This document shows positions 8,988 through 32,042 of a DNA stretch of 64,000 nt, piece by piece. Location: contig OZ244071.1 in the NCBI GenBank assembly GCA_965215555.1, forward strand, positions 2,304,190-2,368,189. The letters are read 5' to 3'. Within the stretch, counting starts at the first letter, position 1. Each line of letters starts with the position of its first letter. The stretch comes from Dehalococcoidia bacterium. GTDB taxonomy: Bacteria; Chloroflexota; Dehalococcoidia; Bin125. The translations under genes were made by a program, and so were the position numbers. The notes beneath the pieces are model-generated. The model did no database searches, was not told the DNA's origin, and was given only the letters and a program-made list of their open reading frames with translations.

Positions 8988-10265
8988 TTACGGGTCCACA
9001 AGGTCGTGATGGGCTCGACGCCATCCGGCCCAGAAGACGATTCCGCTGGACAACAACAGTGCGAAGGCCAGAGCGAATCCGGCCTGGAAATCAACAGCGT
9101 CCACGAGGACGGAGGCTGAACCGATCACGATTGTGATCATCACGGCCGTGATTAGTGAGAAGACTGAGAGCACTGTCGCCCGCTGGTCGGATGGGATGCG
9201 TCGGTTGATGTAGCCGCCAGCGAGCGGTTGCACGACCGCTGTACAAGCGGCCAAGAGCGCGAATGAGGCGACGATGGCCAGATGGTCAACGACGAGCAAG
9301 GGCAAGAAGACCAAGACGCCGACTACCAGCACCGTTGGCAACGCCCGGCGTTCCCCGAGCCGTGCGGCCAGCGGAGCGGCCACGATGGCCCCGAGCATCA
9401 AGCCGACGAACGAGGGCAGCATGAACGCGGAGTAGGTCAGTCCCTCAATCAACGTGATGGCAGGATCCACGCCGTGCGAACGGACAACGGGTTGGATGAA
9501 GAACTCGGGGAGATCGAGCGTGGCGAGCAGGATGCCAGCGAAGAGGATCGCCCAGAGTACCGGGCGGGTTCGCAGGGCGATTCTCAGTCCAGTGCGAATC
9601 TCGCTGAGGACTGCGGCGCCTGAGACGTGCGATGCCGATTGCGCACCCGTGTCGCTGAAGTCCGATTCGCGTCTCGGCGGTTCGCGCAGGGCTAAGGCGA
9701 GCAGGCCGGCCAATCCCATTCCCGCTGCGCTGATGATGATCACGGTGCGAAAGTCGAGCACCGAAACCAGTGGGCCAGCAAGGATCGTGGCGGCCAACAA
9801 GGACGCGGTCGCCACAGCGCTGGCACGACCGGCGTGGCGCTCGTACTCGTCAGTGCGCTTGAGTTGTCTGAGGCTGTCGTAGAGCAGCGCATCGTCTGAG
9901 CCGGACATGAGGGTGCGGGTGATCGACATGAGTAGGTGACCGAGGATCAGGCTGGGGAAGTTGAGCGTGGCAAAGAGCACCGTCGCTGCGGCGAAGCCCA
10001 GCGCTCCGATACCCAGGGCCACCCGGCGACCAAAGCGATCGGCGATCGCGCCGGTCGGAACCTCTGCCAAGATGGTCGCGATCCCGAACAGGACTTCCAT
10101 GAACCCGATCTGGACATAAGACAGTCCATGCTGGGATTGCAGGAAGAGGAACCAGACTGGCAGCCAGAAATGGAATCCGCGAACGAACTGGAAGCTGTAG
10201 TAGATCGGAATGTTGCGGGCGAATGGACTGCGAGCCGACACGCCGTCCGTCGGCGAGCTACTCAT
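8988..10265 (-). CDS. MFS transporter (paralogue 3 of tandem triplet)
   Basis: About 12 TM. MFS motif A EVPTGAIADRFGRR, plus SGSDDALLYD and RRIPSDQRATVLS. Confidence 0.9.
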   Translation of the reverse strand: MSSSPTDGVSARSPFARNIPIYYSFQFVRGFHFWLPVWFLFLQSQHGLSYVQIGFMEVLFGIATILAEVPTGAIADRFGRRVALGIGALGFAAATVLFATLNFPSLILGHLLMSITRTLMSGSDDALLYDSLRQLKRTDEYERHAGRASAVATASLLAATILAGPLVSVLDFRTVIIISAAGMGLAGLLALALREPPRRESDFSDTGAQSASHVSGAAVLSEIRTGLRIALRTRPVLWAILFAGILLATLDLPEFFIQPVVRSHGVDPAITLIEGLTYSAFMLPSFVGLMLGAIVAAPLAARLGERRALPTVLVVGVLVFLPLLVVDHLAIVASFALLAACTAVVQPLAGGYINRRIPSDQRATVLSVFSLITAVMITIVIGSASVLVDAVDFQAGFALAFALLLSSGIVFWAGWRRAHHDLVDP

Positions 10266-11734
10266 ACCCGATCGTGAGGTTCCGACATTGGAGCGGCCAG
10301 CATTGATTCCGAAGAGACACCGTTGGCCTGAGCCACCCGGCCGTTTGTTCGGTTTCCGTTCGCCCCGTTCGCCCCGTTGACCATGAGGCCGCCAGGAACC
10401 TCACCTCCAACATCGGCCTGGGGTGCTGGACGGATGCTGATACGACGCAACGTGTCTGCCTGATCGCGGCGATGAGAACGCCGCCAGGCAATCCAGAATC
10501 CCATGCCTACGGAGAGTACGACACCGACTGAGAGTCCGTAGGCGAAGCGGAAGTCGATGCTGTCGGCAGACGCTGAGATTGCAGGAACAATCAACGCCAT
10601 CTGGGCGGCCATCATCAACTCGAAGATCGACAGCACGGTGGCTCGTTGGTCGGATCGGATGCGCCGGTTGATGTAGCCAGTGGCGATGGGTCGGATTGCA
10701 GCATGAATCCCACCCAGAATCGCGATCGGCGCGATGATGCTGAGGTGGTCGAAGAGCAGCAGTGGAATGAAGAGGAAGGCCCCGCCGATCATCAGAATGG
10801 GGATCGCACGTCGTTCACCGACCCGGGCCACGAACGGAGCAGCCAGCAGGGAGCCGGCCGACATCGCTGCGAAGCCGGGCATGATCAACCCGCTCCAGAC
10901 TGCGCCATCGAACAGTCCGCCCGAAGGGCTGAGCCCATGATGCCGGAGGAACGGCTGCACGAAGAAGTTCGGCATCTCGAATGCCACCGTGACTACACCC
11001 GCTAACAGGATGATCCACAGCACCGGCTTTTGACGTATGACGATTCGGAAGCCATCGAGGATGTAGCTGACAATGCCTTGCGGCGAACGGTCGTCGGCGG
11101 ATGCATCGACTGCTGACACCGGAGCGGCGTACAGTCCGTCGTCGGCGAATTCTGCTTCGGTGCGCGGCGGCTCGCGTAGCAGGAGCGCGACGAATCCGGC
11201 CAACGCCATCGTTCCGGCGCCGATCAGGAAGACGGCTTCAAGGCCCCAGAGGCCGGCCATCGGACCGCCAAACAGCGCCGCGCCCAGCAGTGCGCCAGTC
11301 ATCATCGCTTCCGAGCGGCCCATGTGCTTCTCGTACTCGCGACTGCGCCCCAGCGTGCGCAGGGTGTCGAACAGCAACGCGTGCCCCGAGCCGGAATAGA
11401 GAGTCATCGACACGGCCATGACCACGTAACTCAGCGCGAGTCCCACGAAGCCATCGGCCATGACGAACAGGAACGTTCCGCCCGTAAACATGAAACCGCC
11501 CAGCGCCAGGGAGGTGCGCCGTCCCCAGCGGTCGGCGACCGCGCCGGTCGGAACTTCGGCGATGAACATCGTGACCCAGAAGACGGCTTCCATCAAACCG
11601 ACCTGGGTCAGTGAGAGACCGCGTTCGTCCTGCAGGAAAATGATCCAGACGGGCACCCAGATCAAGAATCCAGTGGCGAACTGGAACAGGTAGTAGATCG
11701 GAATGTTTCGCGCGAAGCGGTCAGTCTGTGTCAT
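10262..11734 (-). CDS. MFS transporter (paralogue 2)
   Basis: EVPTGAVADRWGRR, SGSGHALLFD, RRIRSDQRATVLS. Stop overlaps the next start by 4 nt. Confidence 0.9.
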   Translation of the reverse strand: MTQTDRFARNIPIYYLFQFATGFLIWVPVWIIFLQDERGLSLTQVGLMEAVFWVTMFIAEVPTGAVADRWGRRTSLALGGFMFTGGTFLFVMADGFVGLALSYVVMAVSMTLYSGSGHALLFDTLRTLGRSREYEKHMGRSEAMMTGALLGAALFGGPMAGLWGLEAVFLIGAGTMALAGFVALLLREPPRTEAEFADDGLYAAPVSAVDASADDRSPQGIVSYILDGFRIVIRQKPVLWIILLAGVVTVAFEMPNFFVQPFLRHHGLSPSGGLFDGAVWSGLIMPGFAAMSAGSLLAAPFVARVGERRAIPILMIGGAFLFIPLLLFDHLSIIAPIAILGGIHAAIRPIATGYINRRIRSDQRATVLSIFELMMAAQMALIVPAISASADSIDFRFAYGLSVGVVLSVGMGFWIAWRRSHRRDQADTLRRISIRPAPQADVGGEVPGGLMVNGANGANGNRTNGRVAQANGVSSESMLAAPMSEPHDRV

Positions 11735-11814
11735 CGGCGGGCGCGTGCAGAGTACCGGTCATCGTTGGCAATGCAGTAGAGCGTAGGGATTTGAGCTGAG
11801 GTGAGAGCGGTCGG

Positions 11815-13269
11815 TCAGTCCGTGTTCTGCACATTTGGGTACAGAGTCGGAGCATCGCCGCCGTGCCCGTTCTGATGCAACGGCGATTGTTGTCGAAGCG
11901 CTTGGGGTTTGGGCACGGTCATCGACCACTCGCGAATGCGTTCTGACTGGTCGTGCCGATGTGCAAACCGCCAGAGCAGCCACAGCGCCGTGCCGATCGT
12001 GACCACCACCAGCAGCGCCAGTCCGAATGCGGCCGGAAACGAAACGAGATCCGCCACTGGCAGGAGCGCGATCACCACAATGCTCATGACACCGCCGTGT
12101 ACCAGCGAAAAGATCGACAACACCGTTGCGCGCTGATTGGATGTGATTCGTCGGTTGATGTAGCCGGTCGCGATCGGCCGGATCGCCGCCTGGGCAATGC
12201 TGACCATGAAGATGGCGCCCAGCAGACCGAGATGGTTCCAGATCGCGAGCGGAATCAGGAAAAGCGCTCCAAACGCGAGGATTGCGGGGAAGGAGCGTCG
12301 CGCGCCCAACCTGCCGATCAGTCTCGCGGCCGCCATCATGCCCAGCATGGTTCCAAGGTAGCCAGGGATCAGCAACGCCGACCAGATGAACCCGTCAGCC
12401 ACGCCGGCTAGTGGGTCGAGACCATGCTGCGCCACGTACGGCTGAGACACGAAACGCGGGAGATCGAACAGCGCGATCAAGATCGCCGCGAACGGCACCA
12501 GGTAGCGAATCGGTCGATTGCGCCAGACGATGCGGAATCCTTCGAGCATCTCGTGCATGATCGGCATCCCGCTGTCTGTGTGGGGAGCCTGATTCGGGTG
12601 GTCGGCAGCCGTGTGCCGGACGTCTGACGGGGGCGCATGGAGTGGATCCGGTGCAAAATCCGATTCTCGGCGCGGCGGCTCACGCAGCGACAGCGCTGCG
12701 ATTGCTGAGACAACAAAGAATCCTGAGGAAACGAGGATGGTCGCGGAATATCCAAGGAAGTACGCGACTGGTCCACCGATCGCTGTCGCGAGCACCATCA
12801 TGGCCCAGAACAGCCCATGAGAACGCCCCGCGTGGCGTTCATAGTCGCCGGTTTGGCCCAGGACTCGCAGCGTGTCGTAGAGCAGGGCGTCGCCAGCGCC
12901 GGAGTAGAGGGTCATGCCCACACCCATCACGAGGTACGAGCCCAGCAGGAGCGAGAAGGAATCGGCCATCGCGAAGATGACTGTGGAGATCGCAAAGAGC
13001 ATCGCGCCGAGCGCCAGCGACACGCGCCGACCAAATCGGTCCGCGATCGCACCAGTCGGGACTTCGCAGATGATGATCGTGAGCCAAAAGAATGACTCGA
13101 TAATGCCGACTTCTGTCAGAGACAGGCCGCGTCCATCCATCAGATAGATGATCCAGATGGGCAGAAAGATCATGAACCCGGTCGAGGCCATGAACAGGTA
13201 GTACACGCGGATATTGCGTTGGAAGCGACGCGGTTCGTACTTCGGTAGGGCAGGAGCGAGAGCGGACAT
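11815..13269 (-). CDS. MFS transporter (paralogue 1)
   Basis: EVPTGAIADRFGRR, SGAGDALLYD, RRITSNQRATVLS. Confidence 0.9.
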   Translation of the reverse strand: MSALAPALPKYEPRRFQRNIRVYYLFMASTGFMIFLPIWIIYLMDGRGLSLTEVGIIESFFWLTIIICEVPTGAIADRFGRRVSLALGAMLFAISTVIFAMADSFSLLLGSYLVMGVGMTLYSGAGDALLYDTLRVLGQTGDYERHAGRSHGLFWAMMVLATAIGGPVAYFLGYSATILVSSGFFVVSAIAALSLREPPRRESDFAPDPLHAPPSDVRHTAADHPNQAPHTDSGMPIMHEMLEGFRIVWRNRPIRYLVPFAAILIALFDLPRFVSQPYVAQHGLDPLAGVADGFIWSALLIPGYLGTMLGMMAAARLIGRLGARRSFPAILAFGALFLIPLAIWNHLGLLGAIFMVSIAQAAIRPIATGYINRRITSNQRATVLSIFSLVHGGVMSIVVIALLPVADLVSFPAAFGLALLVVVTIGTALWLLWRFAHRHDQSERIREWSMTVPKPQALRQQSPLHQNGHGGDAPTLYPNVQNTD

Positions 13270-13284: not shown

Positions 13285-13327
13285 GGCCAACGCCTCAGGG
13301 TTTGGCCAACGCCTCGGGGTATGGCCA
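13285..13327. repeat. 19-bp tandem direct repeat (2 copies plus partial) upstream of the MFS triplet
   Basis: GGCCAACGCCTCAGGGTTT (13285-13303), GGCCAACGCCTCGGGGTAT (13304-13322), GGCCA. Confidence 0.85.
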
Positions 13328-13335
13328 GGGACGAG

Positions 13336-14073
13336 TCAGTCAGGAGGGCGGCTCGGAGACAGCGGTCGCCGCCGCATCTGGTTCCAGGAACGCGGATACT
13401 GCGCGTTTGTGGGGCGCGTCTTAGTTGCAACCAGGATGTCTTCCGGTGGATCGATTGGCGTGATTTCTGCGCCCAACTCATGTGCCGTTTGTTCAGCCAG
13501 ACGCATCTCTGCCAGCGGGAGTTCGCCCGTCCAGGCCGCGGCGATGCCGCCAACCTGCAGGAAGGGAACCATGAGCTCGAGCGCTGTTGTCGGTGGAGCG
13601 ACTGCTCGGCTGATCGCCAGGGAGAACCCTTCGCGCATTTCAGTGTGTGCGGCCAACTCGGCGCGTTCCCGCAGGACTCCGATGTGAGGTGCGTCAAGCA
13701 TGGCAACGATCTCAGACAGGAAGTCCGCTGCACCGGTGCGCGAGTCCAGCAAGGTCGCCGCTCGTTCTGGTTCGCAGAGGGCGTAGGGCAAGCCCGGAGT
13801 GCCATTGCCGCTGCCGATGTCGACCATTGGTCCGTGCGGCACCGGCAAGTCGGCGCCGATCAGGCGATGTCGCCCTGCCAATGGCTCAATGATGTGCTTG
13901 TGAATCGCGGTGTCGGGCTCTCGAATTGCTGTGAGATTGCGTGGCGCATTGAGCATGCCGCTCAGCCAGATGCTCAGTTGCGCGGCCAGATTTGGATTCA
14001 GGTCCTCCACATAACTCAGGCCTGCCAGGCTGAGCGCCGTTCGAATCTGCTGCTGGGCTATCAGGTACGGCAT
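13336..14073 (-). CDS. rsmG: 16S rRNA m7G527 methyltransferase RsmG/GidB
   Basis: NLTAI, KHIIE, SAM motif VDIGSGNGTPG, RAE, SRAVA, and C-terminal KTRPTNAQYPR. Start probably ATG 14073. Confidence 0.88.
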   Translation of the reverse strand: MPYLIAQQQIRTALSLAGLSYVEDLNPNLAAQLSIWLSGMLNAPRNLTAIREPDTAIHKHIIEPLAGRHRLIGADLPVPHGPMVDIGSGNGTPGLPYALCEPERAATLLDSRTGAADFLSEIVAMLDAPHIGVLRERAELAAHTEMREGFSLAISRAVAPPTTALELMVPFLQVGGIAAAWTGELPLAEMRLAEQTAHELGAEITPIDPPEDILVATKTRPTNAQYPRSWNQMRRRPLSPSRPPD

Positions 14074-14187
14074 CGGCAAGGGAGTAGGATAGGGAAGTCG
14101 GGGCCTGGTGATGCTCTGTTCGCGCCGCGTGTCACGCGGGAGGGCCACCAGACGACTCGAACACTGCTCGATAGTTGGAGACGACTA

Positions 14188-15219
14188 ATGGCATTCTTTG
14201 ACGACGAACAGACAACCGACGCGGTGGAGGAGTCCGTGGACGACGTGGTTGAGGGCGACGCCGAGATCTTCGATGAGCCGGTCGCCGCAGAAACGGAAAA
14301 CGGAACCGTTGCTCCGTCCAAGCCGATCACCCTGGACCTGGCGGTGATGGAGTACTTCAAGTGGGAGGAAGAGCGAGAGGCGAAGCGCTCGCGACGCAAG
14401 ACGACGACGACCACGCGGCCGCGTCGAGGCGCATTCGTTCTGGACGAGCCGGCGCGCGAAGCGGTCACGAGATTTCTCTGGCACTTCGGTCCCAGTACGC
14501 CGATCTCGGAACTCTCACCCAAGACGATGGAGGGGTTCCAGGAAACCATCGGCACCAACGCCATGGATCTTGCCTCGCGCCTGCAACCAGTGAAGGAATT
14601 TCTGCGCTTTTGTTGGAAGCAGCAATACACGGTCACCGTCGATGCCGAGGGTGAGGTCAGCGCGCAGAACCTGGGCAACTACCTGCGAATCAAACGGGCC
14701 AGCAATGTGGTGCGCGACGCGTCGCGCTTCCAGCATGAACAGGCCCAGACCTTTGAGATGACCGCTGCTGGTCTCCAGTCGTTGCATGAGGAACTGGGAC
14801 AGCTCAACGCCGAGATGCCCGAAGCCGTGCAGGCTGTGGCCGCCGCGCGCGAGGACAAGGACATCCGTGAGAACGCTCCGCTCGAGGCAGCACGCGAGCA
14901 TCAGGAGCGTCTCAAGTCACGGATCGATGAACTCGAGTACCAGATTGCGCACGCCGTGGTTCGCGATGAACGAGCGACAGGGCGGGCCAAGCTGGGCAGT
15001 CGCGTGTCGGTCGTCGAAGTAGACGATAACGGCGGCTTGCTAGGCGAAGCCAGAGAGTACACTCTCGTTGGAACCACCGAAGCGAATGCCGCGGCGCGGC
15101 GGATCTCGGTCGAGAGCCCGCTCGGTCGCGGACTGCTTGACCAACCTGCCGAGCGGCAGATCGAAATCCAGGCCCCCAGCGGTCGCAAACGGTTCCGCCT
15201 CCTCGCGGTCACGGGCTGA
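14188..15219 (+). CDS. greA: Transcription elongation factor GreA with a long N-terminal extension
   Basis: C-terminal ~160 aa has MTAAGLQSLHEEL, acidic tip EDKDIRENAPLEAARE and ISVESPLGRGLL. ATG 14188 adds about 180 aa upstream. Confidence 0.9.
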   Translation: MAFFDDEQTTDAVEESVDDVVEGDAEIFDEPVAAETENGTVAPSKPITLDLAVMEYFKWEEEREAKRSRRKTTTTTRPRRGAFVLDEPAREAVTRFLWHFGPSTPISELSPKTMEGFQETIGTNAMDLASRLQPVKEFLRFCWKQQYTVTVDAEGEVSAQNLGNYLRIKRASNVVRDASRFQHEQAQTFEMTAAGLQSLHEELGQLNAEMPEAVQAVAAAREDKDIRENAPLEAAREHQERLKSRIDELEYQIAHAVVRDERATGRAKLGSRVSVVEVDDNGGLLGEAREYTLVGTTEANAAARRISVESPLGRGLLDQPAERQIEIQAPSGRKRFRLLAVTG

Positions 15220-16652: not shown

Positions 16653-17795
16653 ATGCCCACGCTGGAATCGGCGAGGCAGAAGCGCGGGAGCGTCCTTCAG
16701 CAAATCGCTGAGGCGTCTTACGGCTATCCCAACGACGAGTTTCCCGATCGCGAAGTCACGACCAATTTCCCTGAGGAACAGATGGGCGTCCGCGTCCGAT
16801 CGGGCGGTTGGCTGTATCCCGACCTCGTCGTCACCGACGAGCCTGGCCACTTCGTTGCCCTCTCCGGCGATCTGGCACTCGCCCACGAAGTCACCAATGA
16901 AACCGCTGTTGAACGCTGGAAGCCACTGGCCCAGGCGTCGCCGCTCGTCCTCTACGTCCCCATGGGACACAGTGGCCGCGCGATTCGCCTCTGCCGCATG
17001 AACGGGATCAAGCTGCACAAGCTGATCGCTTACCGGCAGCGACCGGCTGGATTCGGCATCGATCTGCAAGAGGCCTACAGCGGTCCCGACCTGTTCAAGC
17101 CGATCGCCGGACTGCTGCCACCGGCCCTCCGACCGATGGTCTACCGCACCGAGCGCAAAGTCGTCGCAGATTCCTACTTGCAGCCATTCCCGGCTTCACG
17201 CAGCGGCGACGTGCCGGCGATCGCAGGTCCGGCAGAACAACCGCCAGCAACGCTCGCGCTGGCATCGGGTATCGAAGACGAACACGGCCATGGCGACCAT
17301 GACTCTCCCGAGACCCACCTGCCACCGCCCAGTCTCGCTCCGATCCTGTTTGCACTCGGCCTGATGATGACCGCCGCCGGAGCGGTGTTCGTTGGTGAGT
17401 TGCTCGGTGTCGGCATCACGTTGATCATCATCTCGGCCGTGCGTTGGTTGCTCGATGACATGGGCTACTTCGAAGCGGGCGGTCCGGCAGAGTTTCGTCA
17501 GAATCCTTTGCAGGTTATGCCTGAGGTGGCTCCGCCGCCCGGCGTGCACATGCCGCCTCCCAGCATTTCTCCAGTCATGTTCGCCATCGGCCTGATGATG
17601 ACCGCTGCAGGGGCAGTCTTTGTCGAGCATCTGCTGGGCGCCGGCATCACCCTGATCGTGTTTGGTGGCGTTGGCTGGTTCCTGGAAGACATCAAAGCCT
17701 TCGAAGAGCCTGTGCACGATGACCACCACGACGACCACGAATCGGACGCACCACTCATGGCCGGTGCGGACGGCGCAGAACAGCGCGCCGGATAG
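16653..17795 (+). CDS. Fusion protein: unknown soluble N-terminal domain plus two cytochrome c oxidase subunit IV (CtaF-like) TM hairpins
   Basis: First gene of the oxidase cluster. Repeats HLPPPSLAPILFALG...RWLLDD and HMPPPSISPVMFAIG...GWFLED, flanked by His-rich stretches. Confidence 0.65.
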   Translation: MPTLESARQKRGSVLQQIAEASYGYPNDEFPDREVTTNFPEEQMGVRVRSGGWLYPDLVVTDEPGHFVALSGDLALAHEVTNETAVERWKPLAQASPLVLYVPMGHSGRAIRLCRMNGIKLHKLIAYRQRPAGFGIDLQEAYSGPDLFKPIAGLLPPALRPMVYRTERKVVADSYLQPFPASRSGDVPAIAGPAEQPPATLALASGIEDEHGHGDHDSPETHLPPPSLAPILFALGLMMTAAGAVFVGELLGVGITLIIISAVRWLLDDMGYFEAGGPAEFRQNPLQVMPEVAPPPGVHMPPPSISPVMFAIGLMMTAAGAVFVEHLLGAGITLIVFGGVGWFLEDIKAFEEPVHDDHHDDHESDAPLMAGADGAEQRAG

Positions 17796-17851: not shown

Positions 17852-19204
17852 GTGACGGCATTTCAACGGTTGTGGCGAACGCGATTCGGTCGACTAACGC
17901 TAGTTATGGGCGCTGCCGCCCTGGCTCTGCTCGCGCTCACCGGTTTGGCCAGCGCGCAGGTCGCACTGCCCGAAGCGGTCTCCGAGCAAGGCGATTCGAT
18001 CCGCACGCTCTACTTCATCGTCTTCGCCATTGGCGTCATCGTCTTCATCATCGTCGAGGCGATGATCCTATGGGTCGTGTTCCGCTACAAGCGCAAGTCC
18101 GACGACGAGCTGCCCACACAGGTTGGCCATAACACCACTGCTGAAGTCCTCTGGACGGGTATCCCGACGGTCATCGTCGTCATCCTGTTCTTCGTGTCGT
18201 TCTTCGTGTTGCAGGACATTCAGGCCGCCGCCGATCCCGACGAGGAAGTGACTATTGTCGACGTCCAGGGTCGTCAGTGGGCCTGGGCGTTCAACTACGC
18301 GGTGCCGCTCGGCACTGAGTTGTCCGAGAGTATGTCCGAGGACCTGGCCGAGACAGACATCCATCTTGAGGACCCGTCCCTCGTCGTCCCGTTCATGACA
18401 CTCAAGATGGGCGTCGAGCACATGCGCGTCGTCGCCCGGACCGGTGATGTCGTCACGGTTGAGCGAGCTGTCAACGGTACGGTCGCCATCCGGCATAGCG
18501 CAGGTTCTGAAATCATGCGCGTCTTCAATGGCACCGACACGGTCGCCGAGGGTCGACTGCAGGCCGCCGACAACACGCCGATTGTGACCGTCCCGGTTGG
18601 CCAGATGATTCGCTTCAATATCGCATCCGCTGATGTGCTGCACGCCTTCTACACTCCGCAGTTCCTGACCAAACTTGACGCGGTCCCCGGCCGTGTGCAG
18701 ACCCTCTGGGTTCGAATCACCGACACCGGTGACTTCCAGAGCCAATGCGCTGAGTTCTGCGGTCGCGACCACGCCCGGATGATCTACACAGTCAGGGCGT
18801 TGCCGATGGCCGATTACGAGGCCTGGTTCGAAGACAAGGCAGGCGACGCACCCGAGCCGATCGAAGGCGACTTCGGTGGCGAAGAAGAGGTCGAGATGGA
18901 AGAGGGCGCGATCGGCAATCCGGCCAACGGCCAGAACCTGTTCTTCTCCCTGGGCTGCAACGTCTGCCACGGCGACAGCGGTGAAGGCCTCGTTGGCCCG
19001 ACCATTGCCATGACCGTCGTACCGCTCGACCGAGTGATTCTGCAGTACCGTGAGCCGCTCGAGGCGATGACCGAGTTCACGCCCGATCAGGTTTCGGACG
19101 AAGAAATCGCCGACATCTACGCTTGGCTGCAGTCGGTCGAACGACCACCTGCGGCAGACGAAATCCCCAGCAAACTGGCAGAATTGATCGAGGCCGGCGG
19201 CTAG
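17852..19204 (+). CDS. ctaC: Cytochrome c oxidase subunit II with C-terminal cytochrome c (caa3 type)
   Basis: Signal peptide, 2 TM, GRQWAWAFNY, CuA ligands DVLHAF and CAEFCGRDHARM, heme c motif CNVCH. Confidence 0.95.
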   Translation: MTAFQRLWRTRFGRLTLVMGAAALALLALTGLASAQVALPEAVSEQGDSIRTLYFIVFAIGVIVFIIVEAMILWVVFRYKRKSDDELPTQVGHNTTAEVLWTGIPTVIVVILFFVSFFVLQDIQAAADPDEEVTIVDVQGRQWAWAFNYAVPLGTELSESMSEDLAETDIHLEDPSLVVPFMTLKMGVEHMRVVARTGDVVTVERAVNGTVAIRHSAGSEIMRVFNGTDTVAEGRLQAADNTPIVTVPVGQMIRFNIASADVLHAFYTPQFLTKLDAVPGRVQTLWVRITDTGDFQSQCAEFCGRDHARMIYTVRALPMADYEAWFEDKAGDAPEPIEGDFGGEEEVEMEEGAIGNPANGQNLFFSLGCNVCHGDSGEGLVGPTIAMTVVPLDRVILQYREPLEAMTEFTPDQVSDEEIADIYAWLQSVERPPAADEIPSKLAELIEAGG

Positions 19205-19246
19205 CCCCGCCACGGCGGACGCGAAGACGCAGAGGGAGGCATCACG

Positions 19247-20977
19247 ATGGCGACACTGGCGGGGGCTCAGAACACACCGTATGCAGGCGCAAATGCCTGG
19301 CGCGTGATCCTCGAATGGTTGACCACGGTCGACCACAAGAAGATCGGCATCATGTACCTCTGGACGGCCGGCGCGTTCGGACTGGTCGGCATGGCGTTCT
19401 CCCTGGTTATGCGCACCGAGCTGGCGCAGACCGGCACCATCATTTCAGCCGAGACTTACAACTCGATCTTCACGATGCACGGCAGCGTGATGATCTTCCT
19501 CTTCTTGCTACCGGTCGGCGCGGCGTTCATGAATTACTCGATGCCGCTGCAAATCGGCGCGCTCGACATGGCGTTCCCTCGAATTAACGCGCTGTCCTTC
19601 TGGATCTTCCTCTTCGCTGGAGTGCTGCTGACCCTCAGCTTCGCTGTTGAGGGTGGAACCGCCTCCGCAGGCTGGACCGCCTACGCGCCTATCACGCTTG
19701 ACACGGGCAACAATGCCGAGCCGCCCGGCGTCGGGATGGACATGTGGTTAGTCGGTGTCATCCTGTTGGGTCAGGCGTCCATCTTCGGGTCTGTGAACTT
19801 CTTAGTCACGATCTTCAAGATGCGCGCGCCCGGCATGACCATGTGGCGCCTGCCGTTGTTCACCTGGACTACGCTCGTCACCGGTCTGCTGATTCTGCTC
19901 TCGACTCCGGTCCTCGCCGCTGCACTGGTGCTCGGCTTCATCGACCGCAACGGCGCGGGCGGAGCATTCTTTGACCCGGCCGCCGGCGGACAACCGCTGC
20001 TCTGGCAGAACCTGTTCTGGTTCTATTCGCACCCAGCCGTCTACATCATGATCCTGCCCGCGATGGGGATCGTCTCCGACGTGTTCGGCGTCTTCACCCG
20101 ACGCCCCGTCTTCGGCTATCGCTCGATGGTCCTGGCGCTTGTCGGCATCGGGTTGCTTGGATTCATCGTCTGGGCACACCACATGTTCACTACCGGTGGC
20201 GTCTTCCTGCCCTTCTTCATGGGTGCGACGTTCCTGATCGCGGTGCCAACCGGGGTCAAGATGTTCAACTGGATCGCCACCATGTGGCGCGGATCGAACA
20301 TCTTCCCCACGGCGATGCTGTTTAGCGTCGGATTCCTCATGCTCTTCCTGATTGGCGGCATCACCGGCGTCTTCCACGCGGCCGTGCCTGTCGACTTCGC
20401 CCTGCACGACACCTACTTCGTCGTTGGGCACTTCCACTACACCATGTCGATTGCGGCAACCTTCGGATTCCTCGCCGGTTGCTACTACTGGTTCCCCAAG
20501 ATGTTCGGCAAGTTCATGAACGAGGGCCTGGGCAAGCTCCATTTCTGGCTGTTGTTCATTGGCGTCAACCTGGTCTTCTTTACCCAGCTCTTGCTCGGGC
20601 TCGACGGCATGCCTCGCCGGATCAATGACTACGTTGACAACCCCGGCTGGGAGCTGATGAACATGCTGATTACGATCGGCGCGTTCGTCTCGGCCGCTGG
20701 CATGATGGTGTTCCTCTGGAACGTGTTCTACTCGCTCAAGTGGGGCGAGCGCGCAGGCTCCGACCCGTGGGAAGGCACCACGCTCGAGTGGGCGACGACA
20801 TCGCCGCCGCCGCCACACAACTTCGACTCGCTGCCCGAGATTCGCTCTGAGCGACCGCTGTTCGACCTCCGCTTCGGCGAGAAGCTGCAGGACGACCCGC
20901 ACTACCACGTCAACAACGGCCACAGCGGTGGAGGCGGCGCCAAACCGCCCTCCGCGTCCGCGCGGGAGGAGGGCTAG
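19247..20977 (+). CDS. ctaD: Cytochrome c oxidase subunit I, A2 type
   Basis: TVDHKKIG, TMHG, WFYSHPAVY (YS motif), WAHHMF, DTYFVVGHFHY, GMPRR. Confidence 0.97.
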   Translation: MATLAGAQNTPYAGANAWRVILEWLTTVDHKKIGIMYLWTAGAFGLVGMAFSLVMRTELAQTGTIISAETYNSIFTMHGSVMIFLFLLPVGAAFMNYSMPLQIGALDMAFPRINALSFWIFLFAGVLLTLSFAVEGGTASAGWTAYAPITLDTGNNAEPPGVGMDMWLVGVILLGQASIFGSVNFLVTIFKMRAPGMTMWRLPLFTWTTLVTGLLILLSTPVLAAALVLGFIDRNGAGGAFFDPAAGGQPLLWQNLFWFYSHPAVYIMILPAMGIVSDVFGVFTRRPVFGYRSMVLALVGIGLLGFIVWAHHMFTTGGVFLPFFMGATFLIAVPTGVKMFNWIATMWRGSNIFPTAMLFSVGFLMLFLIGGITGVFHAAVPVDFALHDTYFVVGHFHYTMSIAATFGFLAGCYYWFPKMFGKFMNEGLGKLHFWLLFIGVNLVFFTQLLLGLDGMPRRINDYVDNPGWELMNMLITIGAFVSAAGMMVFLWNVFYSLKWGERAGSDPWEGTTLEWATTSPPPPHNFDSLPEIRSERPLFDLRFGEKLQDDPHYHVNNGHSGGGGAKPPSASAREEG

Positions 20978-20979
20978 TC

Positions 20980-21600
20980 ATGGCAGCAGGAGCCATCACC
21001 CACAAGCGGGTGCACCCCGTCCGTAGCTTCCTCGTCGGCGACGAGCCGATGACGACCGGGCTGTGGGGCATCATCTTCTTCATCTTCTCCGAGGTCATGT
21101 TCTTCGCGGGACTGATCGCAGCGATGCTCGCCCTGCACAGTGACACGCTCTTCTGGGAACCAACCAACGGCGGTCACCGTCTCGAAGGCGCTGAGTGGCG
21201 TCCGATTCTGTTCACGGCCCTCCTGGTTAGCACATCGATCCCGATGCAGATCGCGGCGTTCGCGATTCGCAAGGGCAATCGCAAGGCGATGTTGATCAAC
21301 ATGGGCATCGTGCTGGTGGTCGGCGTTGCCTTCATGATCAACCAGTACTTCGAGTGGCAGCACGCCGACTTCGGCATCTCCGATGGTCCGTACGCCGCCA
21401 CGTTCTACACGCTCACAGGATTCCACGGCGCTCACGTGATTGGCGGGCTGGTCTTCATCTTCGCGCAGTGGCTGCGCGGTCTGTTGGGGCACTTCGATGC
21501 CAAACGCAACACTGCGATTGAGGCCGCGACGCTCTACTGGCACTTCGTGGGCTTCGTATGGTTGCTCGTGATCTTCCCGCTCGTCTTCTTCCTCAGCTGA
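20980..21600 (+). CDS. ctaE: Cytochrome c oxidase subunit III
   Basis: FIFSEVMFFAGL, FYTLTGFHGAHV, LYWHFVGFVW. Confidence 0.95.
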   Translation: MAAGAITHKRVHPVRSFLVGDEPMTTGLWGIIFFIFSEVMFFAGLIAAMLALHSDTLFWEPTNGGHRLEGAEWRPILFTALLVSTSIPMQIAAFAIRKGNRKAMLINMGIVLVVGVAFMINQYFEWQHADFGISDGPYAATFYTLTGFHGAHVIGGLVFIFAQWLRGLLGHFDAKRNTAIEAATLYWHFVGFVWLLVIFPLVFFLS

Positions 21601-21613
21601 CTGGGACAGTCAG

Positions 21614-22615
21614 GTGAGAAGCAGGCCGCGAGCGCTGTTCGCGGTCGCCTGCGGACTCGCGGCCGTCGTCGCGCCATCGGCCGCGCTGGCGCATGACGGT
21701 CGGTACGCCGAGTCGGGCGACTTTCTTCATGCCCTCGGAGTCTGGAGTGTCGACGCTCCCGGTCTGGCGCTGGTGCTGATCGTCGGTGGACTCTACGCCT
21801 GGGGCTACTACCGACTGCGGCGCGACTCACCGAACTTTCATTTTCCCCGTTGGCACGGCTGGTGTTTCTTCGCCGGTTGGGTGTTCATGTTGTTGGGGCT
21901 CGTGTCTCCAATTGACACCTACTCGGACGATCTGTTCTGGGTACACATGGTCCAGCATGTGTTCATCACCATGCTGGTGGCGCCGCTGATGCTGCTGGGT
22001 GCTCCGGCGACTCTGGCGCTGCGATCCGCCTCGCCACGGATACGAACGTCGTATCTGGTGCCGTTCCTCAACTCCAGACTGGTCCGAGTCCTGACCTGGC
22101 CGCCGGCCGCGATCATCATCTACATCGCCAGCGTGTGGAGCTGGCACTGGCCCGACGCGTACGACGCGGCCATCGCGTCAGAGGCGGTGCACTTCGTCGA
22201 ACACGGTGTGTTTCTCTTCGGCGCTGTCCTGCTCTGGTGGATGGTGATCGGCGTCGACGCGACCCGTCTGCGACCGCATCACGTCTGGCGCTGCGCCTTG
22301 CTGGTCCTCGCGATCATGCAGAACATCGGTCTGGGGGTCATCCTGATCAACGTCGGAGACGCGATCTACGACACCTACGCGACCGCCGCCGCTGTTCGCG
22401 AGTGGGGACCGACCGCGCTGATTGATCAACGGATCGGCGCCGGCATCATGTGGGTGCCGGGATCCATGATGTTCGCACTCGCCGTCATCATGACGGTCTA
22501 CTTCTGGGCCGAGCGAGAGGGGTTCAAGGATCGCCGCAACGACGCGGTGCGCGATATGCAGATTCGTGTCCACGGTGAGATCCCGACTCTCGGACCGCGG
22601 CCTGGCGAACACTGA
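21614..22615 (+). CDS. ctaG: caa3 oxidase assembly factor CtaG
   Basis: SPIDTYSDDLFWVHMVQH, APLMLLG, WHWP, HFVEH, DQRIGAGIMWVPG. Confidence 0.9.
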   Translation: MRSRPRALFAVACGLAAVVAPSAALAHDGRYAESGDFLHALGVWSVDAPGLALVLIVGGLYAWGYYRLRRDSPNFHFPRWHGWCFFAGWVFMLLGLVSPIDTYSDDLFWVHMVQHVFITMLVAPLMLLGAPATLALRSASPRIRTSYLVPFLNSRLVRVLTWPPAAIIIYIASVWSWHWPDAYDAAIASEAVHFVEHGVFLFGAVLLWWMVIGVDATRLRPHHVWRCALLVLAIMQNIGLGVILINVGDAIYDTYATAAAVREWGPTALIDQRIGAGIMWVPGSMMFALAVIMTVYFWAEREGFKDRRNDAVRDMQIRVHGEIPTLGPRPGEH

Positions 22616-22762: not shown

Positions 22763-23821
22763 ATGGCATCGATGACCAGGTTTCAACGAGTCGGTCTGGG
22801 ACTGGTCATTGGCCTGTTGGCGTTGACCGCCCTGGGCGGCATCGTTCGGGTCACAGGGTCTGGCCTCGCTTGTCCCGACTGGCCCGCTTGCTACGGAGGA
22901 CTGATTCCCTCCGGCGACTTCGGTGAGTTTGCGGCGTACCAGGTCTGGCTCGAGTGGACCCACCGCCTGGTCGCAGCGATCATGGGTTTCATCATCCTTG
23001 GCTACGCCATCGTCGCCTGGCGTCGATACCGAGATCAGGTTCGCGTCTGGCTGCCCGCCGTCCTTGCGATCCCGCTCTTGGCGCTTCAGGTCGTGTTGGG
23101 TGGCCTGACCGTGACCGAGCAGCTCGAATCGCTAATCGTCACGTCTCACCTTGCCACCGCCATGTTGATCATCGCGACCGTCGCAATCTCGTGGCTGAGT
23201 ACCTTCGCCTGGCAAACCGTGACGCCCGACGACGATGCGCCGCTCGGAACCGATGCTCCGTCGCAAGCGCGCAATTTCGCTCGCATCGTCCTGATCACGA
23301 CAATCCTCGTCTATGCGGTCGTCGTGGTCGGCTCCTATGTGACGCATGTCGGCGCAGGACCCGATGCGGGATCCCACGTAGGTCCGGGTGGCGCAGCCTG
23401 CGGAAATCAGTGGCCGTTCTGTTACGGAGGCCTGTTCCCCGAAGGCGAGTACGCTCAATGGAACATGGGTCACCGATTCTTGGTCCTGTTTGGCGGACTC
23501 GCCCTGTTCGGCGCATCAATGGGCGTCGTGATGTTGCGGCCCCGCTCGCGGTCATTGACATTCCTGATTCACGGAGCAACGACGCTGTTCGTCGCTCAGA
23601 TATTCATCGGCGGCGCGATGATCTGGATTAACTTCGACGCTTGGGCACGCGCAATGCACCTGTCTATGGGGTCAATCGTCTGGCTAGTGGTCACTTCATC
23701 TGCACTGGTCGCGGCCTACCGTGCAGGTTGGCTGCGATCTGGTCCGCAGGTTGTCGGACAACCACATCCGGCAACGGTCGATGCCGACGCAGTCCCGTCC
23801 GAGAGTGAGGTCAACGGATGA
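22763..23821 (+). CDS. ctaA: Heme A synthase CtaA (type 1, Cys pairs in both halves)
   Basis: GLACPDWPAC, EWTHRL, SHL, CGNQWPFC, MGHR, AMHL. Confidence 0.9.
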   Translation: MASMTRFQRVGLGLVIGLLALTALGGIVRVTGSGLACPDWPACYGGLIPSGDFGEFAAYQVWLEWTHRLVAAIMGFIILGYAIVAWRRYRDQVRVWLPAVLAIPLLALQVVLGGLTVTEQLESLIVTSHLATAMLIIATVAISWLSTFAWQTVTPDDDAPLGTDAPSQARNFARIVLITTILVYAVVVVGSYVTHVGAGPDAGSHVGPGGAACGNQWPFCYGGLFPEGEYAQWNMGHRFLVLFGGLALFGASMGVVMLRPRSRSLTFLIHGATTLFVAQIFIGGAMIWINFDAWARAMHLSMGSIVWLVVTSSALVAAYRAGWLRSGPQVVGQPHPATVDADAVPSESEVNG

Positions 23822-24747
23822 CCGATCGTCCTCTCACTTTGCAAGGACCCGCATCGATCTCGGTCTCACGTCGGACACTCGATCTGGCCAAAGGATTCTG
23901 GGATCTGACCAAGCCGGGCATTATCGGCCTGTTGCTGGTCACGACCGTGCCCACGATGATCGTTGCGGCCGACGGATGGCCGCGCGACAGCTTCGTCGAT
24001 GGCCTCGCACTGATCGTGCTCACCCTGCTCGGAGGCGTGCTGACCGCTGGCGGCGCGAACACGTTCAATCAGTGGTTCGACCGCGACATCGACGCAATCA
24101 TGGATCGCACCGCCGACCGACCCTTGCCGTCGGGCGTGATCCAACCCTGGCAGGCGTTGGCCTGGGGCGTATTCCTGGCGACCGTCGGCGGTATACAGCT
24201 CGCGTTGACTGTCAATCTGCTCGCCGCATTGCTGGCCGAGGCGGCCGTCCTGTTCTACGTCTTCATCTACACGATCTGGCTCAAGCGCTCGACGACCCAG
24301 AACATTGTCATCGGTGGCGCGGCCGGATCGATTCCGCCGCTGGTTGGCTGGGCTGCCGTCACTGGCGAGGTGACATGGACGCCGTTCATCCTCTTTCTGG
24401 TCATCTTCATGTGGACGCCGCCGCATTTCTGGGCGCTGGCGTTGAAGTATCGCGACGACTACGCCAAGGCCGATGTCCCGATGCTGCCCGTCGTCTCCGG
24501 CGAACGTGAGACACGCAAGCAGTTGTTGATCTACTCCATCGGTCTGGTCGCCGTCAGCCTGCTCGGACCGCTGGGTGGACATCTGAGTTGGTGTTACGAG
24601 ATCACCTGTGTGATTTCCGGCGCCATCTTCATCTACATCGCCTGGCAGGTTTGGAAAGAGCAGGCGCCGCCGATGCGCCTCTTCTTCGCTTCAATCGCCT
24701 ACCTGTTCATCATCTTCGTGGCCGTCGGGCTGGATGTGCTCGTCTAG
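23818..24747 (+). CDS. ctaB: Protoheme IX farnesyltransferase
   Basis: LTKPGI, NQWFDRDIDAIMDRTADRPLPSG, LKRSTTQNIVIGG, WTPPHFWALA, DYAKADVPMLPV. Confidence 0.97.
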   Translation: MTDRPLTLQGPASISVSRRTLDLAKGFWDLTKPGIIGLLLVTTVPTMIVAADGWPRDSFVDGLALIVLTLLGGVLTAGGANTFNQWFDRDIDAIMDRTADRPLPSGVIQPWQALAWGVFLATVGGIQLALTVNLLAALLAEAAVLFYVFIYTIWLKRSTTQNIVIGGAAGSIPPLVGWAAVTGEVTWTPFILFLVIFMWTPPHFWALALKYRDDYAKADVPMLPVVSGERETRKQLLIYSIGLVAVSLLGPLGGHLSWCYEITCVISGAIFIYIAWQVWKEQAPPMRLFFASIAYLFIIFVAVGLDVLV

Positions 24748-30200: not shown

Positions 30201-32042
30201 TCAGGGCAGGACAACCAGCGGGTCGATGTACCAGTCGTTGTGGTGCACCTCGAAGTGCAGGTGCGGCCCCGTGCTGTAACCGGTGTTGCCGTTGTAGCCG
30301 ATGATGTCGCCTTGCGTGACGTATTGACCCTGCTGCACATTGAATTCGACGAGGTGAGCGTAGATCGTGCTCCAGCCGCCGTCGTGCTCGATCTCGACAT
30401 ACCATCCCAGCCCGAATGCAGAATCTCCACCAACGAACGTCACCAAGCCGTCAGCCGCTGCCACAATCGGTACGTAGAGATCGAGCGCCATGTCCAGTCC
30501 ATTGTGTCGGTAGGAGCAGTCCCAGCTTCGGCACAACCCGAAGAGATCGGTCAGCTCTCCCTGGGCGGGCCAGGCAAAGTTGGGGACGCTCAACGGCAGG
30601 ATGATCTCCTGGCCAATCACAATGGCGTTTGGATCGTTGACGCCGTTCGCCGGGTCGGCGAGGATCAGCGACATATCGACTCCATACGCATTCGCAATCC
30701 CCTGGAGCGTGTCACCCGCCTGAACCGTGACCAGCACCCCCTCGCGCAACGGCAAACGCCACGTGGTGCCGGCGTCCAGCCACTGGCCGGGTTCAACCCA
30801 GCCGTGATTGGCCAACAACGTGTGAGGCGTGACTCCGAGAATCGCCGCCGCGTACTGAACCAGGTCGGCCTCCCACAGTGTCTGTTCCTCCGACACGACG
30901 GGCGGATCAATCGTGCCGTGCAGGTACAGCAACTGGCCAATCACGACGAGGTCGTTGGGACGGTGTGGGTTGAGTGAACGCAGTTCGTCCATCGTCAGGT
31001 TGTGCAAGAGGGCGATGTTCTGGAACGTGTCGTGCCGCTGGACACGGTAGCTCCGACGACGCTGTTCGACGGCCGGGACGGTGCCAGGCGCGGCGTCGGG
31101 CGATGGGCCGGCCCACGGTACGTTGATTGTTTGGCCGATGCGGATGAGGTTCAGGTCTTCGCCGCCGTTCAGTCGACGAAGGTCGGCCAGACTGATGCCG
31201 TAGCGTTCGGCGATCCTGGATGCGAATTCGCCGGGGCGCACGATGTAAGTCGTGGTCAGGACGCCCAACGCCTCAGACGGTTCCAGTGCAGGTGCCAGAT
31301 AGTCAGGAACCGGGATGAGGAGAACATCGCCTGGATGGATCAGGTTCAGGTCGGTCCCCTGATTGTAACTCTGCAGCATTTCCAGCGATATCCCGAACCG
31401 TTCGGCGATCACTGTTGCCCACTCGTTTTCCTTGACGGTGTACTCCGACACGCGAGTGAGGCTCGGGCCGGAGTTGTTGCTGAGAACTCCTGCCGTCAAG
31501 GCCCGCGCCGCCGCTGGTGCTGATTGCGAACTCCCCGTAGAGGCACCGCAAGGCACGATCAGCGTCGCGCCCAACTGGAGGACATCGGGTTTGATATTCG
31601 GGTTGAGGTTGGTCATCGTCTGCGTGTCGGTGCCGTAGTCAAGCGCGATGCTGCCGAGGATGTCGCCTGACTGAACCAGATGTGTACACGAGCCGCCATT
31701 GTTCGCAAGTGCGTTGATCGATCCTGCAGCCGAAGGCGTCGTGCGAGCTACGGTTGTGTTCGCTGCTGCGCAGCCGTATGCGAGGTTCAGAGCGTTGTCC
31801 GGCACATTGATGCGCTGGCCGACGAAAATCTCGTCGGCTGAGGAGATCTCGATGTTGAGCGCCTGCAACACCGAGGTGCTCACATTCAGACAACTGGCGA
31901 TGTCCGACAAGGTATCTCCGGGTTGTACCTCATATGTGTCAGCGGCAGCGCGATCGCTTCCAACTGTGGCTGACCATACGGCGATGATCAGCAGCATCAC
32001 TGCAAAGGCGGCCCATCTGGGCCCGATAGCGGATTGAGGCAT
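30201..32042 (-). CDS. Secreted multi-LysM (6 clear plus 1 degenerate) M23 metallopeptidase
   Basis: Signal peptide; repeats of the type Y.VQ.GD.L..IA...G......L..LN; M23 motifs HNGLD, YAHL, HLHFEV. Confidence 0.92.
   Translation of the reverse strand: MPQSAIGPRWAAFAVMLLIIAVWSATVGSDRAAADTYEVQPGDTLSDIASCLNVSTSVLQALNIEISSADEIFVGQRINVPDNALNLAYGCAAANTTVARTTPSAAGSINALANNGGSCTHLVQSGDILGSIALDYGTDTQTMTNLNPNIKPDVLQLGATLIVPCGASTGSSQSAPAAARALTAGVLSNNSGPSLTRVSEYTVKENEWATVIAERFGISLEMLQSYNQGTDLNLIHPGDVLLIPVPDYLAPALEPSEALGVLTTTYIVRPGEFASRIAERYGISLADLRRLNGGEDLNLIRIGQTINVPWAGPSPDAAPGTVPAVEQRRRSYRVQRHDTFQNIALLHNLTMDELRSLNPHRPNDLVVIGQLLYLHGTIDPPVVSEEQTLWEADLVQYAAAILGVTPHTLLANHGWVEPGQWLDAGTTWRLPLREGVLVTVQAGDTLQGIANAYGVDMSLILADPANGVNDPNAIVIGQEIILPLSVPNFAWPAQGELTDLFGLCRSWDCSYRHNGLDMALDLYVPIVAAADGLVTFVGGDSAFGLGWYVEIEHDGGWSTIYAHLVEFNVQQGQYVTQGDIIGYNGNTGYSTGPHLHFEVHHNDWYIDPLVVLP

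Follow-up and report, generated by a model that had tools for sequence, protein, structure and literature searches.

A repeat module of phage tail and surface proteins inserted into the caa3-type cytochrome c oxidase subunit II of a Dehalococcoidia lineage

The 64,000-nucleotide stretch of a Dehalococcoidia genome analysed here (contig OZ244071.1; hereafter the window) encodes a caa3-type cytochrome c oxidase whose subunit II, the product of ctaC, carries a separately folded segment in the middle of its copper-binding cupredoxin domain. This segment is almost certainly a single copy of a widespread small beta-barrel repeat module of ~55–70 residues, members of which are found singly in tail, tail-fibre, baseplate and capsid proteins of phages and in long tandem arrays in giant secreted proteins with RTX, cadherin and FG-GAP domains. 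An initial annotation made from the letters of the sequence had noticed the extra segment and pointed out a resemblance to modules of phage virion and surface proteins, and we found that this resemblance is true homology. Apart from an unrelated cluster in actinobacteria, we came across no report of a folded domain that interrupts subunit II at this site.

The host gene and the extent of the insertion

The ctaC gene is a 450-amino acid open reading frame (ORF) at positions 17852–19204 of the window on the forward strand that starts with GTG; databases also give its product as a 432-amino acid form starting at M19. The protein was matched by the Pfam families COX2_TM (residues 35–117, E = 1.1e-11), COX2 (231–315, E = 3.7e-20), Cytochrome_CBB3 (356–426) and Cytochrom_C, and it scored 168.7 bits with the NCBIfam model TIGR02866 (CoxB), above the cutoff of 147.7. 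Pfam, TIGR02866 and an AlphaFold model agree on two N-terminal transmembrane helices that are followed by a periplasmic cupredoxin domain.

Read from its N-terminus, the protein begins with a signal-like segment and the two transmembrane helices (residues 1–125, positions 17852..18226; Pfam COX2_TM, with modelled helices at 11–36, 45–80 and 95–124), followed by the first cupredoxin hairpin with Q142-W143-A-W145-A-F147-N-Y149 (residues 131–149, 18242..18298), which was delimited by HMMER alignments to the solved structures 1qle_B and 8hcr_E and by invariant columns. The strand AVPLGTE (residues 150–156, 18299..18319), part of an unbroken modelled strand, carries this hairpin on into the inserted beta-barrel module (residues 157–224, 18320..18523, with its core at 168–224, 18353–18523), which we delimited by profiles, hhalign, column frequencies, structural models and fold matches. 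The remaining cupredoxin (CuA) domain (residues 225–328, 18524..18835; Pfam COX2 at 231–315) contains the CuA ligands H264 and C299-A-E301-F-C303-G-R-D-H307-A-R-M310 (18641–18781) and is succeeded by an acidic, poorly conserved linker (residues 329–355, 18836..18916) with a mean net charge of -6.5, a mean pairwise identity of 28% and a model confidence that falls to a predicted local distance difference test (pLDDT) score of 57 at residues 341–350. A fused class I cytochrome c domain (residues 356–430, 18917..19141; Pfam Cytochrome_CBB3 and Cytochrom_C) follows, with the heme motif C369-N-V-C372-H373 (18956–18970), found by a CxxCH search, and with M406; all of these features lie on the forward strand. 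The ligands H264, C299, E301, C303, H307 and M310 as well as W143 are all present, align in HMMER with the same motifs of 1qle_B and 8hcr_E, and are invariant in a clade alignment of 35 sequences, and the same alignment shows the heme c residues C369, C372, H373 and M406 to be invariant. CtaC has all sequence-defined features of a caa3-type subunit II, and oxidase activity with bound CuA and heme c is predicted. A 422-amino acid antisense open frame (18068–19336, reverse strand) spans most of ctaC, and similar long antisense frames lie over ctaD; they are typical for DNA of 62% guanine-plus-cytosine (GC) content, and nothing marks them as genes.

The initial annotation had described an insert of about 90 residues between the QWAWAFNY motif and the IVTVP strand, and 93 residues indeed separate Y149 from P243 of PIVTVP; positions 18299–18571 of the window (forward strand) translate in the ctaC frame to AVPLGTELSES...RLQAAD, which are residues 150–240. 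The spacing between the two motifs is at least 93 residues in 111 of the 120 best homologues (those carrying both motifs) and exactly 93 in 103 of these 111. HMMER alignments to solved COX2 structures leave residues 151–235 unaligned, stopping at 150 and resuming at 236–243, and the corresponding gap amounts to 27 residues in Paracoccus (1qle_B, 128→155) and 61 in Mycobacterium tuberculosis CtaC (8hcr_E, 167→228). Alignment with the caa3 subunit II of Thermus, which had been proposed as a check, gave two matching stretches with 2yev_B, the better of which begins at residue 243, past the insert. The net insertion comprises ~65–70 residues (approximately 157–224) and not the full 90, because the distance from QWxW to DVxH is 119–131 residues with the insert and 32–52 residues in other relatives; the final ~16 residues of the originally reported interval (FNGTDTVAEGRLQAAD; FNGTDT...RLQAAD) are ordinary cupredoxin strands. 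The statement that the loop at this position is usually much shorter applies to Paracoccus and to relatives without the insert, but it fails for actinobacterial CtaC, which has an unrelated insertion of ~60 residues at the same site.

More than 100 independent database sequences have the same insert, which therefore is no assembly artefact. GC content is 0.60–0.62 across the insert and matches that of the flanks, with no compositional break. An intein or another self-excising or mobile insertion was considered and rejected given the uniform GC content, the presence of the insert in the whole clade and the lack of any Hint/intein or transposase match in Pfam and NCBIfam scans. Uniform GC content and clade-wide presence, together with an ordinary chromosomal neighbourhood, also led us to reject a recent horizontal insertion or mobile element.

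Homology and fold of the inserted module

A search with the insert alone, as the initial annotation had recommended, reached phage tail proteins and giant surface proteins. For this purpose, we used a profile of 24 CtaC inserts (A2) in a HMMER search over 1.84 billion cluster representatives (50% identity), which matched 3350 proteins at E ≤ 1e-3, 483 at E ≤ 1e-10 and 50 at E ≤ 1e-30, with top matches in proteins of 1000–8000 amino acids that contain up to 30 matched stretches each. Local re-analysis of 150 listed proteins yielded 743 repeat copies with a period of typically ~55–85 residues. In the reverse direction, a reciprocal profile of 741 non-CtaC copies matched the CtaC insert of the window at 57 bits, and an hhalign comparison of the non-CtaC repeats (A4) with the CtaC inserts (A2) gave a probability of 99.5% (E = 4e-23). 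The A2 profile also matched the solved 1296-amino acid minor tail protein of phage Chi (8vjh_A, E = 2.6e-8) in two copies at residues 536–571 and 947–984, and the insert gave consistent weak matches to tail-fibre, tail and virion families of the PHROGs database (best E = 2.9e-5, range up to 3e-4). In 50,697 phage genomes, tblastn with the single insert found only marginal matches (E = 0.005–0.9), which are not significant alone but are suggestive in that each annotated one lies in a hypothetical protein or in a gene for a tail, baseplate, fibre or structural protein. The suggested kinship with phage virion and surface modules is thus borne out by PHROG tail-fibre families, 8vjh_A, structural models in BFVD (see below), the 3350 matched clusters and hhalign in agreement.

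The family has the signature ...I.ID.E.M.V....GNTLTV.RG.NGT.A..H..G..V. and the consensus TTITVADASAF..GFTIQIDSEQMLVTAVSGNTLTVTRGVNGTTAAAHAAGAAV. Its near-invariant residues are, in CtaC numbering, E189 (99%), R205 (99%), H215 (96%), V203 (91%) and T210 (88%), all of which are present in the copy of the window. By comparison, H190, R192 and V211 are invariant in the module of CtaC only, with family preferences at these columns for Q/V/E, L/T/R and T, respectively; arginine is found in 14% of the family at the column of R192, and the histidine of H190 is not among the three commonest residues of its column (each at ≥12%). Since hydrophobic M191 and V193 alternate with them in the strand E189-H190-M191-R192-V193, H190 and R192 would be predicted to face outwards. 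Two conserved N-G-T triplets were observed, one in the module (residues 208–210, 18473–18481) and one in the FNGT motif of the next cupredoxin strand (residues 226–228, 18527–18535); with N in 44%, G in 75% and T in 88% of copies, the former turn is family-wide, and both triplets are probably structural turns and not glycosylation sequons.

Pfam domains found alongside the repeat in family members include RTX nonapeptide repeats, cadherin, FG-GAP, Invasin_D3, Peptidase_S74 (endosialidase chaperone) and a TadE/G-like N-terminus, which are hallmarks of secreted adhesin-like proteins and phage fibres. CtaC has one copy instead of a tandem array, and the family profile detected no second copy in the window or in 80 related loci. 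The tandem arrangement is common but not obligatory, because single copies are also found in phage proteins and in stand-alone proteins of ~100 amino acids. Pfam and NCBIfam scans of the insert alone matched no model, and no Pfam model covers the repeat in 21 family members with up to 16 copies, where only sub-threshold, fragmentary or single-protein matches to NfeD, MJ0548_C, DUF6531 and SWM_repeat were seen. No names of family members came out of a look-up of the clusters, and a word-indexed search with the family alignment found only unnamed proteins of ~100 amino acids. This is therefore a large repeat family without a Pfam or NCBIfam model, with at least 3350 clusters at 50% identity and as many as 30 copies per protein in chains that reach ~8000 amino acids. 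It joins tail, fibre, hub and capsid proteins of phages to giant secreted bacterial proteins and merits a family definition of its own.

The initial annotation had called the insert an extra beta-rich domain, and structural modelling agrees. We modelled full-length CtaC with AlphaFold2 on the 35-sequence clade alignment (mean pLDDT 83.7, predicted template modelling (pTM) score 0.79), and residues 151–230 form the most confident part of this model with pLDDT of 93–96. Modelled in isolation, the 69-residue segment forms a barrel of five to six strands (pLDDT 85, pTM 0.71). Both connections to the host domain are unbroken strands in the full model, with one leading from the cupredoxin hairpin into the insert (residues 144–157) and one leading back (220–226), and because of this continuity the module appears to sit on a two-stranded stalk and not on a flexible tether. 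A Foldseek search of the isolated module against BFVD retrieved predicted phage proteins, many of them annotated as tail fibre, with template modelling (TM) scores of 0.8–0.86 and root-mean-square deviations of 1–2 Å, and three of the matches had E < 1e-3. Against the PDB, the highest TM scores were obtained with the phage VP1 capsid protein 9in6_M (0.78), the JBD30 baseplate protein 8rk3_b (0.74) and the Chi tail tip 8vjh_A (0.73), though no PDB match of the isolated module had an E-value below 1e-3. The PDB fold search alone is no proof of homology, because generic small barrels such as the B domain of pyruvate kinase and the N-terminal barrel of F1-ATPase rank alongside the phage matches.

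Lineage, conservation and gene neighbourhood

The proposed survey of Dehalococcoidia CtaC was carried out as a scan with the clade alignment over one genome per GTDB species, which found 586 relatives of which we kept the best 80. The insert is present in 11 of these 80 loci (L001–L011), all labelled as Chloroflexi, Chloroflexota or Dehalococcoidia metagenome-assembled genomes (MAGs), and these are the loci in which QWxW and DVxH lie 119–131 residues apart. The distance of 32–52 residues was found in every other locus that could be scored by motif search, including those of Anaerolineae, Limnocylindria and another Chloroflexota MAG. The downstream gene ctaD is 70–99% identical within L001–L011 and at most 58% identical outside, which fits a single gain of the insert in the common ancestor of these loci, and the presence of the insert in all members of one clade indicates vertical inheritance. 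It has been kept in every sampled member of the lineage (11 species-level genomes and more than 100 sequences that have diverged to 46% identity), with no losses seen. The closest genome (96% amino acid identity) is a MAG named "Chloroflexi bacterium bin125" that was obtained from the sponge Aplysina aerophoba (PMC5649159). "Bin125" is in use as an order-level name within Dehalococcoidia (PMC10608941), and the insert-bearing lineage includes this order of sponge symbionts. Beyond its biology, the insert is a handy sequence marker for tracking this lineage in metagenomes.

The module is under purifying selection with a ratio of nonsynonymous to synonymous substitutions (dN/dS) of ~0.13. Across the clade, mean pairwise identity is 51% for the module, 68% for the cupredoxin domain, 63% for the cytochrome c domain, 60% for the transmembrane part, and 28% and 38% for the two linkers; the corresponding dN/dS values among the nine closest genomes, which are approximate because dS is partly saturated, are 0.13 for the module, 0.10 for the cupredoxin domain, 0.11 for the cytochrome c domain and 0.14 for the transmembrane part.

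Some insert-bearing proteins depart from the common layout. In L011 (CBDBNA010000010.1, 4001–5230), CtaC ends in a low-complexity acidic and proline-rich tail of ~115 residues, ctaD starts ~45 nucleotides later, and no CxxCH motif or cytochrome c domain was found in any reading frame before ctaD; H190 and R192 are kept in this protein despite the lack of a cytochrome c domain. Another insert-bearing CtaC (P0198, 378 amino acids) has an internal deletion that removes the heme-binding core including CxxCH. As a separate observation, a second and smaller insertion of 12–18 residues (DDRGELTD...DP..G) follows the FNGT strand in the next cupredoxin loop of L009, L011, P0115, P0119 and P0120, with only four residues at this site in P0116, and the deeper-branching insert-bearing CtaCs are those with this second insertion (alignment A1, columns ~294–306). 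Small extra loops inside the module itself were seen in P0115, P0116 and P0120.

Directly upstream of ctaC lies a clade-specific gene for a 380-amino acid protein (16653..17795, forward strand) that has a weak Pfam match to Cyt_c_ox_IV in two stretches. Its soluble N-terminal part of ~215 residues has no signal peptide or Pfam match; two tandem two-helix hairpins of the form H(L/M)PPPS..P...A.GLMMTAAGAVF resemble oxidase subunit IV or helices I–II of COX3, and the C-terminal tail is rich in histidine and aspartate. No PDB relative of this protein was found. Among the best 80 loci, this gene is present upstream of ctaC only in L001–L011 and absent from all others. Judged by these features, the protein may be a lineage-specific accessory oxidase subunit, and because its gene is inherited together with the insert-bearing ctaC, the insert may not be the only feature that sets the oxidase of this lineage apart from textbook A-type enzymes.

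The genes after ctaC form an oxidase operon with synteny conserved in L001–L011, all on the forward strand: ctaD for subunit I (19247..20977, an ORF identified by its 70–99% identity to the gene downstream of ctaC in these loci), ctaE for a short subunit III of 206 amino acids (20980..21600, an ORF assigned by position and sequence character), and, by Pfam, the Caa3_CtaG assembly gene (21614–22615), the COX15/CtaA heme A synthase gene (22763–23821) and the gene of the UbiA-family heme O synthase CtaB (23818–24747). The 64-kb neighbourhood consists of ordinary chromosomal housekeeping and catabolic genes. It includes three consecutive MFS_1 transporter genes (425, 490 and 484 amino acids) in tandem at 8988–13269 on the reverse strand and a 632-amino acid ORF (13321–15219, forward strand) with the N- and C-terminal domains of GreA/GreB only at residues 480–631 and no Pfam match in the preceding ~480 residues, which is unusually long for a Gre factor and may reflect either a fusion or an ORF that was called too long. 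An M23 peptidase with five LysM domains (30201–32042, reverse strand), a protein with two LysM domains (33012–34178, forward strand) and another M23 peptidase (49924–51210, forward strand) are also encoded in the window and imply a peptidoglycan wall in the host lineage, which bears on the question of envelope anchoring discussed below.

Possible roles and comparison with known systems

In the oxidases of Paracoccus, Rhodobacter and cattle, the tryptophan of the QWYW motif is the entry point for electrons that pass from cytochrome c to CuA, and the bovine subunit II residues D112, E114, S117, D119 and Y121, right after the QWYW strand, belong to the cytochrome c binding surface. W143 aligns with this tryptophan in HMMER. 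The insertion starts seven residues past W143 and lies between the QWxWxFxY strand that bears it and the next cupredoxin strand (FNGT). Pfam and HMMER alignments uphold the initial view that the host protein is a caa3-type subunit II fused to a cytochrome c and that the insert comes straight after the strand of the electron-entry tryptophan. With its two-stranded connection to the cupredoxin sheet, the module would project rigidly on the outer (P) side of the membrane, at the rim of the docking face from which cytochrome c passes electrons to W143 and CuA. Arguing from this position in the chain and by analogy, we tentatively favour the reading of the module as a fixed wall or staple that gives the docking face its shape. 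It would have no redox cofactor of its own but would position the cytochrome c that feeds CuA, be it the fused domain of most members or a separate donor in the lineage without one, with contacts that may run through the surface residues invariant only in CtaC copies (H190 and R192). Subunit II of heme-copper oxidases is one of the best-studied proteins of respiration, and its cytochrome c docking face is regarded as highly stereotyped; a folded foreign domain at this face, kept throughout a lineage, is a natural experiment in the remodelling of donor docking.

A broader version of this reading, which we consider rather doubtful, holds that a respiratory enzyme has taken a barrel of the phage-tail and adhesin type into service as a functional part, on which the donor cytochrome c or a partner complex would dock through H190 and R192, and that together with the co-inherited 380-amino acid membrane protein it would define an unrecognised architectural subtype of A-family heme-copper oxidases in marine and sponge-associated Dehalococcoidia.

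Several points weigh against a part in docking, and most of them speak equally for a passive structural decoration, that is, a domain captured by chance from a gene for a surface or phage protein, tolerated because its termini are adjacent and kept folded to spare the cupredoxin domain, without a role in electron transfer or binding and at most stabilising the exposed ectodomain in a cell that lacks an outer membrane. How far the module lies from CuA, W143 and heme c, and how it is turned towards them, is read from sequence position only. Its conservation (51% identity) is lower than that of the catalytic domains (63–68%), and the purifying selection could reflect no more than the need of an inserted domain to keep folding. 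Pfam scans of the ORFs revealed no candidate partner for the module within the 64-kb window. The module outlasts the intact fused cytochrome c in L011 and P0198, which rules out the narrower idea of a clamp for the fused cytochrome c only, as L011 has the module without the domain and P0198 has it without the CxxCH core. Its net charge of -3.7 is close to the family mean of -2.7 and similar to that of the rest of the acidic ectodomain, so that there is no electrostatic signature of docking; we dropped electrostatic docking as evidence, and net charge does not discriminate between the wall or staple and its rivals. That the family is a generic repeat or spacer that forms tandem arrays of up to 30 copies would also suit a decoration. 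We nevertheless regard this explanation as possible but somewhat unlikely: The module has been kept without any loss in all sampled members down to 46% identity, its dN/dS is low, the CtaC copies have invariant exposed residues of their own in H190 and R192 that the family lacks, and the insertion site is the sensitive rim of the cytochrome c docking face and no neutral loop.

Two further explanations assign the module a binding partner, in line with the initial annotation, which had suggested that it could dock a partner or anchor to an S-layer. It may be a platform that binds a bc-type complex, alternative complex III or a membrane-anchored cytochrome c and so holds donor and oxidase together in a cell unable to keep soluble periplasmic cytochromes. 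The insertion site is the same as in the CtaC of Mycobacterium and Corynebacterium, whose extra cluster has been proposed to contact QcrC (PMC5040959), L011 has the module yet must use a separate donor, and the clade-specific membrane protein co-inherited with the insert-bearing ctaC suggests a remodelled complex. However, no gene for complex III, alternative complex III or a separate cytochrome c lies within the 64-kb window, the fused cytochrome c of most members would occupy the CuA face, and the insert has no sequence similarity to the actinobacterial insertion. We consider such a platform unlikely as a separate explanation, and it partly overlaps with the wall or staple, from which structures would be needed to tell it apart. 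Alternatively, the barrel might bind a component of the cell wall or S-layer and thereby tether or orient the ectodomain of the oxidase, as in phage fibres and adhesins. The family is almost confined to virion-surface and secreted adhesin-like proteins, and with LysM and M23 wall-binding proteins encoded by the organism a wall would be available to bind. Yet no ligand binding is documented for the module, whose one described structural case is a brace between domains, a rigid two-strand attachment near the membrane-proximal CuA domain would leave little reach to the wall, and our analysis found no direct evidence for anchoring, which makes this explanation very improbable.

That one structural case leads to the phage relatives of the module. 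The minor tail protein of phage Chi (8VJH_A) contains the same module by sequence profile (E = 2.6e-8) and by fold (TMq 0.73), and the baseplate hub gp53 of JBD30 (8RK3), presumably in its domain VI, is alike by fold (TMq 0.74) with a weak sequence match (E = 1.1). In JBD30, the neighbouring domain is braced by a small six-stranded beta-barrel that projects from a beta-sandwich domain, the same arrangement of an inserted staple as proposed here for CtaC. Unlike CtaC, the host proteins in Chi and JBD30 are virion components and no enzymes. Giant secreted tandem-repeat proteins such as P0121 (1252 amino acids, 16 copies) and P0123 (7472 amino acids, 30 copies) share the module with its E...R...H signature as well as an extracytoplasmic context, with RTX, cadherin and FG-GAP co-domains, but their copies are head-to-tail repeats with a period of ~55–85 residues, whereas CtaC has a single nested copy with H190, R192 and V211.

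Among oxidases, subunit IIc of the caa3 enzyme of Thermus thermophilus (2YEV chain B) likewise combines two transmembrane helices, a CuA cupredoxin domain and a C-terminal class I cytochrome c in one polypeptide, and Foldseek ranks it first for the full CtaC model (E = 5.7e-16; sequence match E = 1.4e-26). It has no inserted barrel, and the CtaC described here differs from it by ~68 extra residues that form a separate domain. The best-scoring sequence relatives in the PDB are the actinobacterial CtaC proteins (E = 1.2e-31) of Mycobacterium (8HCR/6ADQ) and Corynebacterium (7Q21), whose QWxWxFxY and PVLVLP strands are likewise separated by an insertion at this site (61 unaligned residues in 8hcr_E). 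This insertion has been described only as a cluster of extra charged amino acids near the cytochrome c-binding domain, with the second heme domain of the bcc complex as its proposed contact (PMC5040959). Its sequence is unrelated to the module, since a search of the PDB with the insert profile brings up no CtaC, and the actinobacterial proteins have no fused cytochrome c. The CtaC of the window scores 190.2 bits against the actinobacterial CtaC model NF050117 (cutoff 250) and is no member of that family, so that only the insertion site is common to both. The insert of Dehalococcoidia CtaC parallels an independent insertion in actinobacteria, which accompanies the formation of obligate supercomplexes.

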